Shown piece after piece: positions 25,145-31,796 of a DNA stretch of 47,450 bases. A program made the translations under genes and the position numbers. How positions within the stretch are numbered: the stretch's first letter is position 1; each line of letters opens with the position of its first letter. Source of the stretch: Cytophagales bacterium. GTDB lineage: Bacteria; Bacteroidota; Bacteroidia; Cytophagales; UBA9547. Below the pieces are notes generated by a model. That model was given only the letters and a program-made list of their open reading frames with translations. It was not told where the DNA came from and searched no databases. The stretch lies in the NCBI GenBank assembly GCA_046152935.1, contig JBJXGB010000133.1:1-47450 (forward strand), given 5' to 3'.

Positions 25145-25202
25145 CTGACATATATCAGTTTCACAAATGATGGCCATCATAAAAACCAATGATACTATTA
25201 AC
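25145..25202. promoter_or_regulatory. three FNR/CRP-like boxes at 22-bp intervals (25145, 25167, 25189)
   Basis: CTGAC-ATAT-ATCAG, ATGAT-GGCC-ATCAT (perfect palindrome) and ATGAT-ACTA-TTAAC (half site); TGA-N6-TCA core as in TTGAT-N4-ATCAA. Confidence 0.6.
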
Positions 25203-25234: not shown

Positions 25235-25936
25235 ATGAAAGGAACATTTCCCGAATGCGCTTCTTGCCATTGCAGAAAAGAATCGCTTTTCAATGGTTGT
25301 GCAATGGAAGAATTAGAAGAAATATCGACAAACAAAAGTTGCAATGTTTATAAAAAAGGCCAAGTAATTTTCCACGAAGGCAACCGTCCACATGGGGTTT
25401 TTTGTGTGAATGAAGGGAAAATAAAAATAAGTCGGTTTACCAGTGATGGCAAAGAACAAATTGTACGATTAGCCAAAGAAGGAGATGTGCTTGGCTATCG
25501 AGCACTAATTGAAGGCAATAAATATTCGGCATCTGCCATCGCACTTGACGACAGCAAGATATGTTTTCTTTCCAGCGATGATTTTAATAAAATAGTAGAT
25601 AACAACATGAAAGTGGCGCATGATTTACTAAAATTAGTAGCTAAAGCACTTGGTGATGCAGAACAAAAAATGACTAATTTGGCACTAAAGCCGGTGCGAG
25701 AACGATTGGCCGAGGCGTTGCTGCTACTAAAAAAAACATATCACAAAGCACAAGAAAAGCAATTTTCGATAGCCATTTCACGCGATGACCTTGCAGCCAT
25801 TGTAGGCACAGCAAAAGAAACCGTAATCAGAGCCCTTTCTGAAATGAAAGACGAAAACATCATTTCGTCTCAAGGAAGTACCATCACCATACTAGACGAA
25901 AATAAACTATTCAAAATCACCCAACTCTACGATTGA
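25235..25936 (+). CDS. Crp/Fnr-family transcriptional regulator with an N-terminal Cys cluster
   Basis: CASCHC-x8-C; cNMP fold (GQVIFHEG..GKIKI..GDVLG); HTH ISRDDLAAIVGTAKETVIRALSE. Confidence 0.93.
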   Translation: MKGTFPECASCHCRKESLFNGCAMEELEEISTNKSCNVYKKGQVIFHEGNRPHGVFCVNEGKIKISRFTSDGKEQIVRLAKEGDVLGYRALIEGNKYSASAIALDDSKICFLSSDDFNKIVDNNMKVAHDLLKLVAKALGDAEQKMTNLALKPVRERLAEALLLLKKTYHKAQEKQFSIAISRDDLAAIVGTAKETVIRALSEMKDENIISSQGSTITILDENKLFKITQLYD

Positions 25937-25948
25937 CAATTTTGAATA

Positions 25949-25984
25949 GTGACTAAAATCATTTTCATCAAAAACCTTTATCAT
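25949..25984. promoter_or_regulatory. FNR-like box GTGAC-TAAA-ATCAT plus a half site 22 bp downstream
   Basis: TGA-N6-TCA at 25949-25962; ATCAT half site at 25980-25984 in the same 22-bp phase as the upstream array. Confidence 0.45.
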
Positions 25985-26075: not shown

Positions 26076-26438
26076 ATGATAAACGGAATTGACATTGTAG
26101 AACAAGAACTTTTGACTGTAAGCTTGCCTATCGAACTCTGTGAGGGCGAATATTTATTCCATCAAAATGATATTCCTGAAAGCATCTATTTTATACTCAA
26201 AGGTGAGGTGCTAGCTGTGTATGCCGATGGAAGCAAAAAATTGATTTCGTGTAAAGAGCTACATGGAATTAGAGATATAATTATAGGCGAACCTTATATT
26301 TATTCTGCGATGGCTATAAACGATGTGAAGCTCAAAATAATGGATAAGAACCTGATAATGCCGATTTTAAACAAAAACCGAATGACGATAATAAAAAATG
26401 CATTTTCATTCCCTTCGTTTGGTTTTTGGTACGAATAA
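26076..26438 (+). CDS. stand-alone cyclic-nucleotide-binding domain protein (no HTH)
   Basis: GEYLFHQND..IYFILKGEV..YSAMAI pattern; 120 aa. Confidence 0.7.
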   Translation: MINGIDIVEQELLTVSLPIELCEGEYLFHQNDIPESIYFILKGEVLAVYADGSKKLISCKELHGIRDIIIGEPYIYSAMAINDVKLKIMDKNLIMPILNKNRMTIIKNAFSFPSFGFWYE

Positions 26439-26611: not shown

Positions 26612-27472
26612 ATGAAAAAGATAATAGTTCCCATCGATTTTTCAGACTGTTCGCTCAATGCAGTTCGTTATGCCATTACTTTTGCAAGGCTGATTAATGC
26701 AGAATTGATGGTGTTGTATGTGCATGTGCCTGAAGTAACAATTAGCACTACGCCTGTGTGGCAGCCTTACTTTGATATTATGCCTTTACCTATCATGGTG
26801 CATGAGCAAATGAAAGAGGTGGAAAAAATAATCAAACAACACGGCATAAAGGTTAAAACCTTCATACAAGAAGGTGCTTTGACTGATGTGATTACTCAAA
26901 TTGCCAAGAGCAAACACGCAGATTTAGTAATAATGGGTACACAGGGCGTCAATTTTAGCTACAATTCTATTTGGGGTTCTAACACTTCAGATTTAATTGA
27001 AGAGAGAAATATTCCTGTGCTGGTAATTCCTGAAAACTACAACGGAGAATTACAAAGTGGCGCTGAAATAGTGTTTGCTACCGATTTCAAAAGCACCGAT
27101 TTTATTCCCGATTATTTTATCGAATTATCTAAAAATATCAATGCAATAGTGAATGTTTTTTACGTAACAGAACCCTACAGAGACGAAGAAGCGTTGGCTT
27201 ACGAGAAAAACGAATTTGAGTTTGTAGAATCGCTTTTTGAAGGCACAAAAGTAATGCTCCACCATTCTTATAAAGAAAACTTAATTCATGCAGTTGAAGA
27301 ATTTGCCTCCAAAAAACATGCTTCAATGATACTTATGATTGGACACCAAAGAGGATTTTTGGGCAATTTGCTTCATAGCAGTGTGACCAAAAGAATGGCT
27401 CTGCATACCCGAGTGCCATTCTTTGCCATACCAGACGAAAAGGTTGAAATGAACAAAACCTATTCTTGGTAA
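26612..27472 (+). CDS. universal stress protein (tandem USP domains)
   Basis: IIVPIDFS, DLVIMGTQG, WGSNT, IPVLVIP, IVFATDF and LLHSSVTKRMA motifs. Confidence 0.92.
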   Translation: MKKIIVPIDFSDCSLNAVRYAITFARLINAELMVLYVHVPEVTISTTPVWQPYFDIMPLPIMVHEQMKEVEKIIKQHGIKVKTFIQEGALTDVITQIAKSKHADLVIMGTQGVNFSYNSIWGSNTSDLIEERNIPVLVIPENYNGELQSGAEIVFATDFKSTDFIPDYFIELSKNINAIVNVFYVTEPYRDEEALAYEKNEFEFVESLFEGTKVMLHHSYKENLIHAVEEFASKKHASMILMIGHQRGFLGNLLHSSVTKRMALHTRVPFFAIPDEKVEMNKTYSW

Positions 27473-27772
27473 AAATATTTTAGAAAAGTACAGATGCCTT
27501 CATAGATCGATGACAGACTTTTTTGTGCCTTGATTTTACTGAGATACAGTAGTAAAAAATATTAAACCTAAAAATGATGCTAGTGGCACTATTATAGTAC
27601 TATCTTAATCGATTTCTGATGCCAATTTAAAACAAATTGACAAAGGCGATTTACACCCCAAATGAGGAATCAATATTACTTTAGAAATGATGAAACAAAA
27701 ATGCTCTAGTTGAGCCTTTGGTCTTGAAGTATAAATTTTGATATTATTACAAACGAAATTTTAAATATTCCT

Positions 27773-29911
27773 ATGAAGTTGATATTTACAACATCTATTG
27801 TGGTTTTGCTCTCGCTACAAAGTTTTGCCCAAAATGCAAGCAATATCATTGGTGCAAACGATGATGGTTTGGCGATTTGGCTACTGATAATCGTATGCTT
27901 CTCGCCATTGGTTATTTTGATTGTGATTTTGTTTTTCAAATTACAAAACCAAGTATTTGTCGATAGACAATGGCGAAAAATCGACAATGAAAGCCGCTTC
28001 TCAATGCACATAAAATCTTTAAATCAAAGCCAAATTCTCCAATTTATTACCATGAAAAACAAATCAAATAGTGAAATTGGCAATAATGATACTGGAAATG
28101 CGAATGGCAAAAACATAGCTGTAGGATCTCTATTTTTGCTATCAAGTTCGCAACTATTTGCACAAAGCAGCAACGTAGAAGCTACCTCCTTATTGAGCCA
28201 ACCGGGCATCATTATTACATTATTTCTAATTGCAATCCCAATTCTACTTGGGGCAATTTTTGCGATGATGCAAGTAAATAATCTTATTAAAAAGTTCATC
28301 AACAAATCGAAAAGAAAAGAAGCTGAAAAATTTGCTGAATACCTACAGAACTTTGATAATCCAGCGTTAGAAACTGAATTGGAAAAACGCAAAAAAGTGT
28401 TGGATTATAATTTAACAAACCAAGAATTGTCGGGAAACGAAAAAGCGGAAGACACCAAAGGTACTATTATTAATGTAAGCGACAAAAGGCTAGTAAATTT
28501 CACTGAATTCAAGAAAAAAGCTGCAAAAAGACCGATTTTAGAGCCAGATATTACAAAATTAATTCTTTGGTATTGTGGTTGTGCTACGTTTTGGCTGGTG
28601 GTGGGTACAGGCATTGGCGAATATTTAGGTATCAAATTCGTAGCACCCGATGTAGATCATATCAGTTGGCTCAGTTTTGGGAGGCTGAGACCCACACATA
28701 CCAATATTGTGTTTTGGGGTTGGGCATCTATTGGCCTGATTGGCTTAGGGTATTATGTTGTTCCCACGGTGAGCAATACCAAAATTTACAGCATCAAATG
28801 GGGCTGGATAGCCTTAATTCTCACCAATTTGATGGTGATTTTAGGCACAATTTGCTTGATGAGTGGCTTCAACAATGGTGGTGGAGAATTTAGAGAATAC
28901 GTTTGGCCAGTAATGGCATTGTTTGCAGTCGCACTCATTCTCACCTTGGCCAACTTTTTACTAACGGTAGCCAAGCGAACTACGGAAGAAATTTACATCT
29001 CCAATTGGTATATCGTATCGTCTATTATATTCACCATTATAGTGGCCGTCACGGCATATCTTCCTTTTTGGCAAGATGGTGTGAGCGAAACCATTGTGCA
29101 AGGTTATTTTATGCACTCTGGCGTAGGAATGTGGTTTACGCTTTTCACTTTGGGGCTGCTATATTATTTTATCCCCCAACAAATAAATTTACCTATTTAC
29201 GCTTATAGTTTGGGAATATTGGCTTTTTGGACTCAGATCATATTCTACACCATCATTGGTACTCATCATTTTGTATTCGCCCCATTGCCTTGGTGGCTGC
29301 AAACGGTGGCCATTGTGGGTAGTGCCGGCATGATTATTCCAGTAGTGGCTGCTACAATCAATTTCAGCATGACATTCAAAGGGCAAATGCACAAAGTGTC
29401 GCACAGCTACACATTACCGTTCTTTTTGGTCGCTGTGGTTTATTATTTCATGGTTTCGTTGCAGGGTACTGCAGAGGCATTTAAGTTCACCAATTTACTT
29501 TGGCATTTTACAGATTTCACCGTAGCTCACGCACATTTGGGTTTTTACGGCATTATATCTTTTACTTTATGGGGTGGAATGTATGCCATTATTCCCAGAC
29601 TTACGGGCAAAGAACCCAGTCATTCCTTAGTTGGGGCACATTTTTGGCTAGCTTTTATAGGATTATTGTTCTACGCCATTCCTTTGTCTTACGGTGCTAC
29701 TTTACGAGGCCTAATGTGGATGGAAGGAAAACCATTCATCGAAAGTGTGGTGCTGATGTTTGAGTATTGGCTTTGGCGAGCCATTGGAGGTAGTTTGATG
29801 TTTGTGTCACATTTGGTATTTCTATACAACTTTTACAAAATGACTGCCAAAGAAGTAGAAGAGGTAGATATTAAGGAAGAAGCATTTAGACTATTAAAAA
29901 CCCAAGCGTAA
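27773..29911 (+). CDS. ccoN: cbb3-type (C-family) heme-copper oxidase subunit I with a long N-terminal extension
   Basis: RLRPTHTN (low-spin heme His), YFMHSGVG (CuB His), YTIIGTHH (Tyr plus two His), AHAH (heme ligands); many TM helices. Confidence 0.85.
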   Translation: MKLIFTTSIVVLLSLQSFAQNASNIIGANDDGLAIWLLIIVCFSPLVILIVILFFKLQNQVFVDRQWRKIDNESRFSMHIKSLNQSQILQFITMKNKSNSEIGNNDTGNANGKNIAVGSLFLLSSSQLFAQSSNVEATSLLSQPGIIITLFLIAIPILLGAIFAMMQVNNLIKKFINKSKRKEAEKFAEYLQNFDNPALETELEKRKKVLDYNLTNQELSGNEKAEDTKGTIINVSDKRLVNFTEFKKKAAKRPILEPDITKLILWYCGCATFWLVVGTGIGEYLGIKFVAPDVDHISWLSFGRLRPTHTNIVFWGWASIGLIGLGYYVVPTVSNTKIYSIKWGWIALILTNLMVILGTICLMSGFNNGGGEFREYVWPVMALFAVALILTLANFLLTVAKRTTEEIYISNWYIVSSIIFTIIVAVTAYLPFWQDGVSETIVQGYFMHSGVGMWFTLFTLGLLYYFIPQQINLPIYAYSLGILAFWTQIIFYTIIGTHHFVFAPLPWWLQTVAIVGSAGMIIPVVAATINFSMTFKGQMHKVSHSYTLPFFLVAVVYYFMVSLQGTAEAFKFTNLLWHFTDFTVAHAHLGFYGIISFTLWGGMYAIIPRLTGKEPSHSLVGAHFWLAFIGLLFYAIPLSYGATLRGLMWMEGKPFIESVVLMFEYWLWRAIGGSLMFVSHLVFLYNFYKMTAKEVEEVDIKEEAFRLLKTQA

Positions 29912-29921
29912 ATAAATAACC

Positions 29922-30935
29922 ATGAACGTATTCAACGACCATAGAAAGTTATACCCCATTGCTGGCGGGCTGTTTGCATTGCTTACTTATTTAGTAGTGA
30001 TAATGCCCGCATTTCAAAATCAGGCAAACAATGCTCCCCTACCTGGCACAGAGCCACTTTCGGGCGATGCCATGGCTGGAAAACTCATTTACATTGGAGA
30101 GGGTTGCGTGGGTTGTCATTCGCAGCAAGTACGAAATGTGGAAATGGATAAAATGTTTGGCAGCCGACCAGGTATGGCAGCGGATTATGCAAATATTGGC
30201 CGAACAAGTATTTGGCAAAATACTGCTACGCTGATGGGTACAGAGCGTACAGGGCCTGATCTTACAGATGTAGGAAACAGACAACCAAGCAAGGAATGGA
30301 ATTTGATGCACCTCTACAATCCACGAATCGTGGTGGCACAGTCTATCATGCCATCGTACGAATGGCTATTTGATTTGAAAGAAAATCCCGCTAAAACAGA
30401 TGTGGTGGTGAATGTGCCAGTGCAATTTATGAATGGTAAAAAAGAAAAAGTAGTGGCAACCAAAGAAGCCTTGCAATTGTATGCCTATTTACAATCGCTC
30501 AAGCAAATGCCATTGCCAGATGGCACAAAACCTTTTGAGTTTTTGTACAAACGACCAGTGGCAGAAGCAGCAGCCACTAAAAATGACAAACCCCAAGTAG
30601 ATGGCAAAGTATTGTATGCCTCCAATTGCCAAGCTTGTCATCAAGCGAATGGAGAAGGCTTAAAAGGGGCATTTCCTCCTTTGAAAGGCAGTAATGTGGT
30701 AAATGGTGAAAATATCGAATTGTATGTAGATATAATAATGAATGGCTACGATGCCAGACCTGAATACGGGGCTATGGCTGCCGTAGGTACCAATCTGAAA
30801 TGGGATGAAAATCAGGTAGCTGCCATCATCAATTATGAGCGTACGGCTTGGGGCAATACTGGAAAAGAAGTTTCAACAGCAGAAATAAAAAAAATAATGG
30901 AATTGGTGAAAACAAAAGCAACAGCCTCAAAATGA
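29922..30935 (+). CDS. ccoO: CcoO/FixO-like subunit II fused to an extra C-terminal cytochrome c
   Basis: GKLIYIGEGCVGCHSQQVR, GTERTGPDL and SIMPSY motifs; second heme motif CQACHQ with AFPPL and M(AA). Confidence 0.85.
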   Translation: MNVFNDHRKLYPIAGGLFALLTYLVVIMPAFQNQANNAPLPGTEPLSGDAMAGKLIYIGEGCVGCHSQQVRNVEMDKMFGSRPGMAADYANIGRTSIWQNTATLMGTERTGPDLTDVGNRQPSKEWNLMHLYNPRIVVAQSIMPSYEWLFDLKENPAKTDVVVNVPVQFMNGKKEKVVATKEALQLYAYLQSLKQMPLPDGTKPFEFLYKRPVAEAAATKNDKPQVDGKVLYASNCQACHQANGEGLKGAFPPLKGSNVVNGENIELYVDIIMNGYDARPEYGAMAAVGTNLKWDENQVAAIINYERTAWGNTGKEVSTAEIKKIMELVKTKATASK

Positions 30936-31198
30936 ACAATTTAAGAAACGGAATCGTATGCTTAGTGCTGCTATTAGGTATGGAATGGGCAACTTGGGCT
31001 TGCCCGGTATGCGAGCGAAATCAGCCTAAAGCTCTAAAAGGCATTGTGCATGGTGCTGGTCCAGAAAGCAATTGGGACTACGTAGGAGTCGTAATTACAG
31101 GCATTATTGCTTGTTTTACCTTATTTTATTCTGTGAAATGGTTGATAAAACCGGGCGAGAAAAACCAAAGCCATATCAAATATTCCATTTTAAATTGA
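30932..31198 (+). CDS. 88-aa exported/membrane protein with a CPVC motif
   Basis: ATG overlaps the ccoO stop (ATGA); signal peptide then ACPVCERN; HGAGP; one TM helix. Confidence 0.7.
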   Translation: MNNLRNGIVCLVLLLGMEWATWACPVCERNQPKALKGIVHGAGPESNWDYVGVVITGIIACFTLFYSVKWLIKPGEKNQSHIKYSILN

Positions 31199-31307
31199 TG
31201 TAAAATGAATCAATACGTAGGTGTTTCCACTTTGACAGTTCATTTTGTTGAATGTGTGGGAAGCGTATGGTAGGTTTCTTTAGGCTAAAACTATAATATT
31301 TTATAAG

Positions 31308-31718
31308 ATGAATAATAAATGCTCTGTACTTGTATTTTTAGATAACGAAACTAAACCTTATGGGGAATTTTTAGTGCCCATCAACTTCGAGCTCGACACC
31401 CGAAAGTTGGTAGATGGCAACCATGAATTAAAAATTGTAAGCAAAGATCCTACGGGCAAAGAAGGTGTCCGCAAAATCCCTTTTGTGGTGAGAAATGGGC
31501 CAGGTATTGCCATAGAGGGCATCACTGAAAACGAAATTGTAGATGGAATTATTCCTTTGATGATTAATGCCTACGGCAAAGGCGACCAAAAACGCTTTTT
31601 GATTGAGGGCAGCGAATCGCCTCATTCCATTCCAGCATGGTTATGGGCTCTCATTATTGCTTTTGTAGGTTGGGCGATGTATTATGCCGTCACAGCTTTA
31701 AATACTCGTCTTCAATAA
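31308..31718 (+). CDS. hypothetical beta-rich protein with a C-terminal TM anchor
   Basis: 136 aa; LDTRKLVDGNHELKIV pattern of Ig-like folds; AWLWALIIAFVGWAMYY TM segment. Confidence 0.7.
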   Translation: MNNKCSVLVFLDNETKPYGEFLVPINFELDTRKLVDGNHELKIVSKDPTGKEGVRKIPFVVRNGPGIAIEGITENEIVDGIIPLMINAYGKGDQKRFLIEGSESPHSIPAWLWALIIAFVGWAMYYAVTALNTRLQ

Positions 31719-31770: not shown

Positions 31771-31796
31771 AAAAAGGCGACTAATGTCGCCTTTTT
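31771..31796. terminator. bidirectional intrinsic terminator
   Basis: AAAAAGGCGAC-TAAT-GTCGCCTTTTT perfect palindrome between convergent genes. Confidence 0.85.

Follow-up and report, generated by a model that had tools for sequence, protein, structure and literature searches.

Which gas does a cbb3-like enzyme reduce, and with which partners does it work, when its operon holds neither ccoP nor ccoQ? The question is raised by a locus on contig JBJXGB010000133.1 (47,450 nucleotides (nt); assembly GCA_046152935.1) of a Cytophagales bacterium of the lineage UBA9547; this whole stretch of DNA is called the window below. A preliminary description of the window had read the operon at positions 27773-31718 as encoding a divergent C-family O2 reductase, in which an additional haem replaces CcoP and which is probably controlled by an adjacent Fnr. 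The catalytic subunits belong to a distinct, Bacteroidota-specific clade inside the C (cbb3) family of haem-copper oxidases, far from the nitric oxide (NO) reductases (NORs). We propose, with a probability of roughly 0.58, that the operon encodes an O2 reductase of this clade, which would typically be deployed under micro-oxic, NO-laden conditions, possibly with an NO-reductase side activity, and which would act in the present genome as a low-O2 oxidase. The operon comprises four intact co-directional genes closed by a hairpin terminator, with the following features (aa, amino acids; bp, base pairs; ORF, open reading frame):

27773-29911, plus strand: subunit I, 712 aa, Pfam COX1 at residues 263-674 (253 bits)
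27773-28558, plus strand: N-terminal extension of subunit I, about 262 aa, from hydropathy analysis
28559-29911, plus strand: CcoN-like core of subunit I, with haem b, haem b3, the three histidines for the second active-site metal (CuB in cbb3) and the cross-link tyrosine
29922-30935, plus strand: subunit II, 337 aa, starting 10 nt after the stop codon of subunit I
30932-31198, plus strand: ORF3, 88 aa, most likely start at 30932, in an ATGA overlap with the stop codon of subunit II
31308-31718, plus strand: ORF4, 136 aa, without a CxxCH motif and haem-less
31771-31796, no strand assigned: bidirectional intrinsic terminator with a stem of 11-12 bp and T-runs on both strands

Subunit I carries the main evidence. 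Aligned with CcoN of P. stutzeri (3MK7_A), which served as the reference and whose numbering is used here, it retains the six histidine ligands (H309=H60, H448=H207, H498/H499=H257/H258 and H586/H588=H345/H347) and the tyrosine Y492=Y251 in YTIIGTHH (Y-x5-HH), located in helix VII and not in helix VI; the Glu of the Ca2+ site is also kept (E372=E122). Conservation of these residues was counted directly in 80 family members of 54-92% identity, and H60, H207, Y251, H257, H258, H345, H347 and E122 are invariant in all 80, as are Y223, N289, Y317 and N333 of the KC proton channel. Both the set of histidines with the helix VII tyrosine and the QGYFMHSGVG of helix VI had been noticed in the preliminary description and are borne out by the alignment. 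In helix VI the window reads VQGYFMHSGVGMW versus VQWWYGHNAVGFF, with the changes W203G, W204Y and G206M, and further substitutions are S240G, H243A and E323Q. The substituted states are invariant in the 80 members except at the variable positions 205, 208 and 215, the last being T or M across the family. Replacement of Glu323 by Gln and loss of His243 are common to most non-canonical C-family clades and are not special to the window enzyme; Gly203 is found in only a few others. No Glu that could act as a ligand for FeB is present in helix VI (HSGVG) in the alignment. Against the TIGR00780 ccoN model subunit I scores 252.6 bits, below the equivalog cut-off of 583.15, and a phmmer search of all Protein Data Bank (PDB) sequences matched cbb3 CcoN chains only (3mk7_A at 1.3e-63), with no NOR among them at E<1e-3.

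The phylogenetic placement was observed in maximum-likelihood trees, obtained by quick searches with SH-aLRT support only, from sequences keeping all ligands; one of them was rooted on cNOR and qNOR sequences from Bacteroidota genomes. In the NOR-rooted tree the C family, the window family, and the window family together with the representatives P0124 and P0126 are each recovered with 100% support. The canonical clade, defined by QWWYGHN, H243 and E323, is separate, also with 100% support and on a long branch. The ligands and this tree together support the earlier view that the enzyme is a divergent C-family member whose O2-type active site is intact. The family is large: a word-indexed search returned more than 4500 matches, the top 120 of which share 80-92% core identity, measure about 700-720 aa, belong to Flavobacterium, Chitinophagaceae and Emticicia, and bear the annotation 'cbb3-type cytochrome c oxidase subunit I'. 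When 1.84 billion representatives at 50% identity were searched exhaustively with phmmer, the family collapsed to one main representative (P0121), with P0124 (46% identity) and P0126 (41%) as intermediates and ordinary CcoN-like proteins at about 30-37%. Many CcoN-like proteins of about 470-500 aa (P0207, P0212, P0232, P0243, P0254, P0263 and others) have lost most or all of the haem and copper ligands together with the tyrosine; these ligand-less representatives appear to be degenerate membrane proteins of the haem-copper-oxidase fold.

For comparison, 80 related Bacteroidota loci were fetched, from Flavobacterium, Ferruginibacter, Chitinophaga, Dyadobacter koreensis, Larkinella terrae, Emticicia, Saprospiraceae, Daejeonella, Deminuibacter soli and others. 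The order subunit I-subunit II-ORF3-ORF4 is found in about 75 of the 80, the exceptions being mostly contig ends. The window enzyme is therefore a member of a large subfamily with its own architecture, and the grouping inside a characterised subfamily of that architecture, which would have spoken against its novelty, holds for the architecture, no characterisation of the subfamily having been found.

Subunit II was described as a CcoO-like protein with a second c-haem domain fused on, and this stands. It consists of a transmembrane (TM) anchor, a FixO/CcoO monohaem domain (residues 21-177) and a class I cytochrome c domain (227-305), with the CxxCH motifs CVGCH at residue 62 and CQACH at residue 236. 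PF02433 (FixO) is matched with 96.2 bits against a cut-off of 29.6, Pfam Cytochrom_C and Cytochrome_CBB3 are matched as well, and the PDB match is CcoO (8smr_F, 1e-25); the ccoO equivalog TIGR00781 gives 90.7 bits, below its cut-off of 200.65. The additional haem domain is CcoP-like (PF13442; TIGR00782 at E=8e-11).

The two small genes and the terminator that had been placed after subunit II are indeed there, as ORF3, ORF4 and the hairpin at 31771-31796; the word 'unknown' used for these genes no longer describes them well, as they are conserved partners in about 75 of the 80 loci. ORF3 has a signal peptide, a periplasmic mature N-terminus CPVCE...HGAGP, one TM helix and a cytoplasmic tail KPGE..HIKY. 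It was found in 74 loci with the cysteine pair, the HG.GP and the tail conserved (family form CP[VI]CE...HG.GP and KP.E..HIK). It is named 'hypothetical protein' at NCBI, has no Pfam or NCBIfam match and gives nothing meaningful in Pfam at E up to 10; its layout makes it a candidate private subunit or metal-delivery factor. ORF4 has a cytoplasmic N-terminal beta-sandwich, a near-invariant stretch at residues 63-105 and a C-terminal TM helix, and lacks a signal peptide. It is present in 73 loci, at 58-87% identity across orders, and clustering at 90% identity gives 2715 clusters that are all without a Pfam domain; in Pfam at E up to 10 no meaningful match was obtained. The AF2 model (mean pLDDT 65) shows strands at 6-61, low confidence at 63-105 and a helix at 110-135, and Foldseek of this model against the PDB returned generic Ig-like matches only (E>0.05), the fold giving no function.

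The origin of ORF4 is indicated by a deeper subgroup of the clade (G149 and G196; loci L104 6105-6929, plus strand, and L105 5361-6170, minus strand), where the ORF4 homolog is fused to a C-terminal periplasmic CSSCH cytochrome c. In this subgroup subunit I is about 54% identical to that of the window, is 471-487 aa long, has a QGYYMH motif and lacks the N-terminal extension, and ORF3 is without CxxC; this gives three c haems, the number found in canonical cbb3, in the deeper form and two in the window form, whose subunit I has gained the extension. Because the deeper relatives carry ORF4 fused to a CxxCH domain, ORF4 is best read as the haem-less anchor part of a CcoP-like membrane-anchored subunit with N-in/C-out topology, which would explain the RefSeq name 'cytochrome C' for a protein without CxxCH. 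As to the proposal that the additional haem replaces CcoP, the fused domain is CcoP-like as expected, but the role of CcoP would be redistributed, ORF4 being its anchor part.

In the N-terminal extension of subunit I, a module made up of a signal-like helix, an 'AQ' motif and a TM helix occurs twice, and a Lys-rich linker follows the two copies. Apart from the TM at about residues 146-164 the extension is poorly conserved, and it has no meaningful Pfam match at E up to 10. In canonical Bacteroidota ccoNO clusters CcoP is a monohaem protein of 292 aa (L101 10108-10986, minus strand; L102 9498-10376, minus strand), and it opens with a signal-like helix, 'AQ' and TM module like the two modules of the extension. 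BLAST matches between the extension and this CcoP N-terminus are weak and TM-driven, a lead and not a finding.

The remaining gene content of the genome (G000; 3.33 Mb in 279 contigs, with a completeness estimate of 100%, on which the genome-wide absences rest) was read directly. It contains two COX1 matches, one A-family oxidase and subunit I of the window, and a single FixO match, and there is no canonical cbb3; the separate ccoNOQP that had been suggested as a check is not there. Cytochrome bd, NOR, nirK and nosZ were not found in the genome either, and genes like those for a truncated globin (trHb) and for RIC are present on other contigs. Queries from canonical Bacteroidota clusters for CcoP (two), CcoG, FixH and CcoI (two) gave no homolog by tblastn at E<1e-3. 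Hence, the reported lack of ccoP, ccoQ and ccoGHIS after the operon holds, and for ccoP, ccoG, fixH and ccoI it extends to the whole genome; a ccoQ-like gene is absent from the operon, CcoQ and CcoS not having been queried genome-wide. Both CcoI queries are P1B-type Cu-ATPases, and neither found a homolog under the same tblastn threshold; the genome may have no CopA/CcoI-type ATPase, which raises the question of how two haem-copper oxidases obtain their copper.

Taking into account this gene content and the conserved residues, we infer the substrate and the electron path as follows, and the roles of ORF3 and ORF4 along with them. Electrons donated by a cytochrome c would be taken up by the haem c of the fused CcoP-like domain in subunit II and pass through the CcoO haem c and haem b to the haem b3-CuB site, where O2 would be reduced to water with the intact His-Tyr cross-link motif. 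ORF4, the putative anchor remnant, and ORF3, a single-TM protein with periplasmic CxxC and His, would act as private subunits or assembly factors, standing in for CcoQ and CcoP and possibly for the missing CcoGHIS machinery of copper and haem insertion. The usual task across the clade would be to respire or to scavenge O2 in micro-oxic, NO-laden settings, perhaps with a useful NO-reductase side activity, since the cassette is normally headed by an Rrf2 gene and accompanied by NO-stress genes, as detailed below. In the window genome the cassette is most likely a low-O2 terminal oxidase, because it is the only oxidase besides one A-family enzyme.

The gene company in relatives was analysed by clustering the flank ORFs of 83 loci, the ORFs being called mechanically and the annotation made on cluster representatives only. 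In 44 of the 72 loci with enough upstream sequence, the same-strand gene immediately before subunit I, or one adjoining that position, belongs to the Rrf2 family (PF02082; C-x7-C-x5-C, Fe-S type). The other neighbours are mostly downstream on the same strand: a truncated globin in 20 loci, RIC/YtfE in 15 (TIGR03652, 239 bits, above cut-off) and a hemerythrin-domain protein in 10. A Trp-dioxygenase-like haem protein and a 2Fe-2S ferredoxin-like protein are frequent as well. Such a set appears to be the gene company of an NO/nitrosative-stress regulon; it matches that of NsrR-type (Rrf2) regulons in its three-Cys Rrf2, RIC/YtfE and globin, whereas the window has no Rrf2. Rrf2 genes have also been reported to adjoin clade II nosZ in Bacteroidetes (PMC6264515).

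Between the Rrf2 stop and the start of subunit I about 40 loci of several Bacteroidota families, among L005-L082 (L006, L048 and L061, for instance), carry the 21-nt motif AAGATAAAAAGGTATTAATAT, a candidate Rrf2 operator or promoter element to judge from its position. The motif is absent from the window, and also, with up to 5 mismatches allowed, from the NorCBQD-nirK island of G095, the one genome tested. No Rrf2 homolog was found in the window genome, and neither trHb nor RIC adjoins the window operon. The NO island of G095 (L136; G095:C10:77000-93000) encodes Rrf2, a 403-aa membrane protein, RIC, NorC, NorB, NorQ, NorD, a hemerythrin-like protein, a NorE-like protein, NirK, a cytochrome c and a NirV-like protein, and the same genome carries a variant oxidase operon with two truncated globins (L137).

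That neighbourhood opens the strongest alternative, an unlikely one in our estimation, in which the enzyme is primarily an NO reductase, for detoxification or respiration, that has retained the C-family tyrosine and represents the NOR so far missing from some Bacteroidota. NO reductase activity can be measured in canonical cbb3. Besides the upstream Rrf2 in 44 of 72 loci and the downstream RIC/YtfE, truncated globin and hemerythrin genes, nirK adjoins the operon in L040, L077 and L105, where a cytochrome c-fused protein of 439-481 aa was taken as NirK and TIGR02376 confirms only that of G196 (L105). G196 has nirK and clade II nosZ, its operon lies beside nirK, and its other NOR-length COX1 match is weak and unclassified (47 bits, a 489-aa frame). 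The deeper-form operon of L105 also adjoins a nirV-like gene and a possible NnrS-like gene, the latter without a Pfam check. The losses of S240 and H243 in the KC channel, E323Q and W203G could fit the same reading, and C-family oxidases reduce NO in vitro (Murali 2024, PMC11214002). On the other hand, Y251 is invariant in 80/80 members, whereas all described NOR families lack the active-site tyrosine (PMC11214002), helix VI offers no Glu for FeB, and the family is phylogenetically far from cNOR and qNOR. Moreover, bona fide NorCBQD (G095) or qNOR (G149, G185) co-occur with the variant in 3 of the 8 carriers sampled, and the window genome, without nirK, nosZ or Rrf2, has no obvious internal NO source or NO-linked regulator. 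The similarity to cNOR (NorCB) and qNOR lies in a distant relationship in the C-family branch and in the genomic company (Rrf2, RIC and nirK islands such as that of G095); these enzymes differ in lacking the Tyr, in their Glu-ligated FeB, in having a NorC partner or a fused N-domain and not FixO, and in needing NorQD, and from the root the branches to NOR and to the window family each measure about 1.5 substitutions per site. A broader form of the idea, in which many Bacteroidota rely on a Tyr-retaining C-family enzyme as their physiological NO reductase or as a dual O2/NO reductase, matured by ORF3 without CcoGHIS or NorQD, is speculative and slightly less probable still. If true, it would explain genomes with nirK and nosZ and without a recognised nor gene, such as G196, and would contradict the rule that the active-site tyrosine is missing from NOR families.

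Several points weigh against the O2 reductase reading that we prefer. Of the seven KC proton-channel positions, three have changed or vary (S240G, H243A, T215 as T or M), and Trp203, which is a Trp in canonical cbb3 and in most C-family clades compared, is Gly. To our knowledge, a Trp at this position is conserved across haem-copper oxidases generally. Because Trp203 and channel positions are changed, O2 reduction may have different energetics, or the site may be adapted to a different substrate. The presence of CuB rather than FeB at the second metal site is assumed. The copper-insertion genes known for cbb3 were not found in the genome (ccoG, fixH and ccoI by tblastn; ccoS was not searched), the 300 bp before subunit I (27473-27772) contain no Fnr-type box, and the neighbourhood in relatives is the one expected for an NO-handling enzyme. 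In the literature, finally, we found no characterisation and no biochemical or expression data for any member of the clade.

The regulatory question leads to a second alternative, an improbable one: an ordinary Fnr-controlled cbb3, for which the NO-stress neighbours are incidental and ORF3 and ORF4 are passengers. The genes upstream of the operon, and the boxes found by regex scan (TTGA-N6-TCAA and TGA-N6-TCA), are the following:

25146-25181, no strand assigned: two Crp/Fnr-type boxes TGA-N6-TCA, 22 bp apart, before the fnr-like gene
25235-25936, plus strand: Crp/Fnr-family regulator, 233 aa, Pfam cNMP_binding and HTH_Crp_2
25950-25963, no strand assigned: Crp/Fnr-type box TGA-N6-TCA before the cNMP-domain gene
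26076-26438, plus strand: stand-alone cNMP-binding-domain protein, 120 aa, Pfam cNMP_binding (44 bits)
26612-27472, plus strand: tandem universal stress protein (Usp), 286 aa, Pfam Usp in two stretches

The fnr-like gene stands 1.8 kb upstream of subunit I on the same strand, and its product has an N-terminal Cys cluster (C8, C11, C13, C22) plus C110; in NCBIfam this product comes closest to FnrL and Fnr, with scores of about 88-90 bits that are both below cut-off. These features, the standing of the enzyme as sole C-family oxidase of the genome and the Crp/Fnr-family genes within 6 kb in about 11 of the 80 relatives would suit this explanation. The whole window has 15 TGA-N6-TCA sites; those before the fnr-like and cNMP-domain genes suggest autoregulation. 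The absence of such a box directly upstream of subunit I argues against an ordinary Fnr-controlled cbb3, and the usual neighbouring regulator in relatives is Rrf2, so that the control by the adjacent Fnr suggested at first is not sustained; Fnr control is possible via read-through or an unrecognised site. Furthermore, in an even set of 401 Bacteroidota species genomes ORF4 occurs in 8, and 6 of these 8 carriers also have a canonical CcoN above cut-off, in a canonical ccoNO cluster, the variant being therefore usually an additional oxidase; only the window genome and G124 have the variant without canonical CcoN. ORF3 and ORF4 are co-inherited in about 75 of the 80 loci, ORF4 with 58-87% identity across orders, and the linkage with Rrf2, trHb and RIC recurs in several families, all of which speaks against this alternative too. 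A Usp gene also adjoins the canonical cbb3 cluster of G135.

That the operon is a decaying paralog, or that its active site is never assembled without CcoGHIS, is very improbable: no ccoG, fixH or ccoI homolog or P1B-ATPase was found in the genome by tblastn, but all four frames are intact, the cofactor ligands are invariant, thousands of family members are under clear purifying selection, and carrier G124 likewise has no canonical CcoN (its accessory genes lying outside the comparison). A pseudogene or artefact is ruled out by conservation.

The proposed O2 reductase of the window can now be set beside the known systems. With canonical cbb3 CcoNOQP (P. stutzeri 3MK7/5DJQ; fused CcoNO in Bacteroidota) it has in common the C family, the His ligands, the helix VII Tyr, the Ca2+ Glu, a CcoO-type monohaem partner and most KC-channel tyrosines with N289, at about 30-37% identity to canonical-type CcoN representatives. 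It differs in (i) its separate, fully supported clade with W203G, G206M, S240G, H243A and E323Q; (ii) the 262-aa extension of subunit I and the fusion of CcoO to one CcoP-like haem domain; (iii) the private ORF3 and ORF4 in place of CcoP and CcoQ genes in the operon, with Rrf2 as the usual regulator in relatives, and (iv) the lack of a ccoG, fixH or ccoI homolog in its genome (ccoS was not searched) and scores far below the TIGR00780 and TIGR00781 cut-offs. Other non-canonical C-family clades (P0124/P0126 with QG[WY]YMHN, and a clade with NWW[YF][GA]HN) have E323Q and the loss of H243 in common with it, and P0124/P0126, the sister group at 41-46% identity, also G203 and M206. Their layouts are different, either CcoN with a 205-aa CcoO, a 78-aa ORF and an 876-aa protein, or a fused CcoNO with a 259-aa cytochrome c, and in the loci seen they lack ORF4, the N-terminal extension and NO-stress neighbours. 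The NO- and cyanide-tolerant cbb3 isoforms of P. aeruginosa (CcoN4; PMC5697931, PMC10790758) are likewise terminal oxidases for stress or a toxic ligand and not for housekeeping, but they are canonical CcoN paralogs, unlike the window clade.

The distribution indicates, from sequence comparison, that the cassette has been transferred horizontally within Bacteroidota, because, in a comparison with the loci L037, L041, L051 and L103, subunit I of the window groups with copies labelled Spirosomataceae, Flavobacterium and Saprospiraceae, at up to 88% core identity, and is only about 54% identical to the copy of the same-order genome G215.

The absence of CcoP and CcoQ is not new in itself, because CcoN together with CcoO is regarded as the smallest cbb3 unit that functions and clusters of ccoNO lacking ccoQP are widespread, both as stated in a passage of PMC5697931 that cites Ducluzeau 2008. 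An 'unknown group' of haem-copper oxidases, along with a 'mandatory Glu' of authentic cbb3, is referred to in Gavrilov 2017 (PMC5492636), where Muntyan 2015 is cited for them. What we did not find described in the literature is a clade with the signature QGY[FY]MH, its private ORF3 and ORF4, its apparent independence of CcoGHIS and its linkage to Rrf2 and NO stress.

Nearly all that is known of cbb3 oxidases, namely their O2 affinity, proton pumping, NO cross-reactivity and insertion of copper and haem by CcoGHIS, comes from the proteobacterial-type clade. The clade described here is abundant in soil and freshwater Bacteroidota, ORF4 alone making up the 2715 clusters given above, and it appears to keep the O2-reducing chemistry with Trp203 and proton-channel residues replaced, with subunits of its own and without the known assembly factors. 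Its characterisation would test which features of cbb3 are truly essential, and how CuB is inserted without CcoI, CcoG or CcoS. Moreover, counts of 'cbb3' in metagenomes may partly reflect NO-linked enzymes of this kind, which would affect genome-based predictions of micro-oxic respiration and of N2O production in Bacteroidota.

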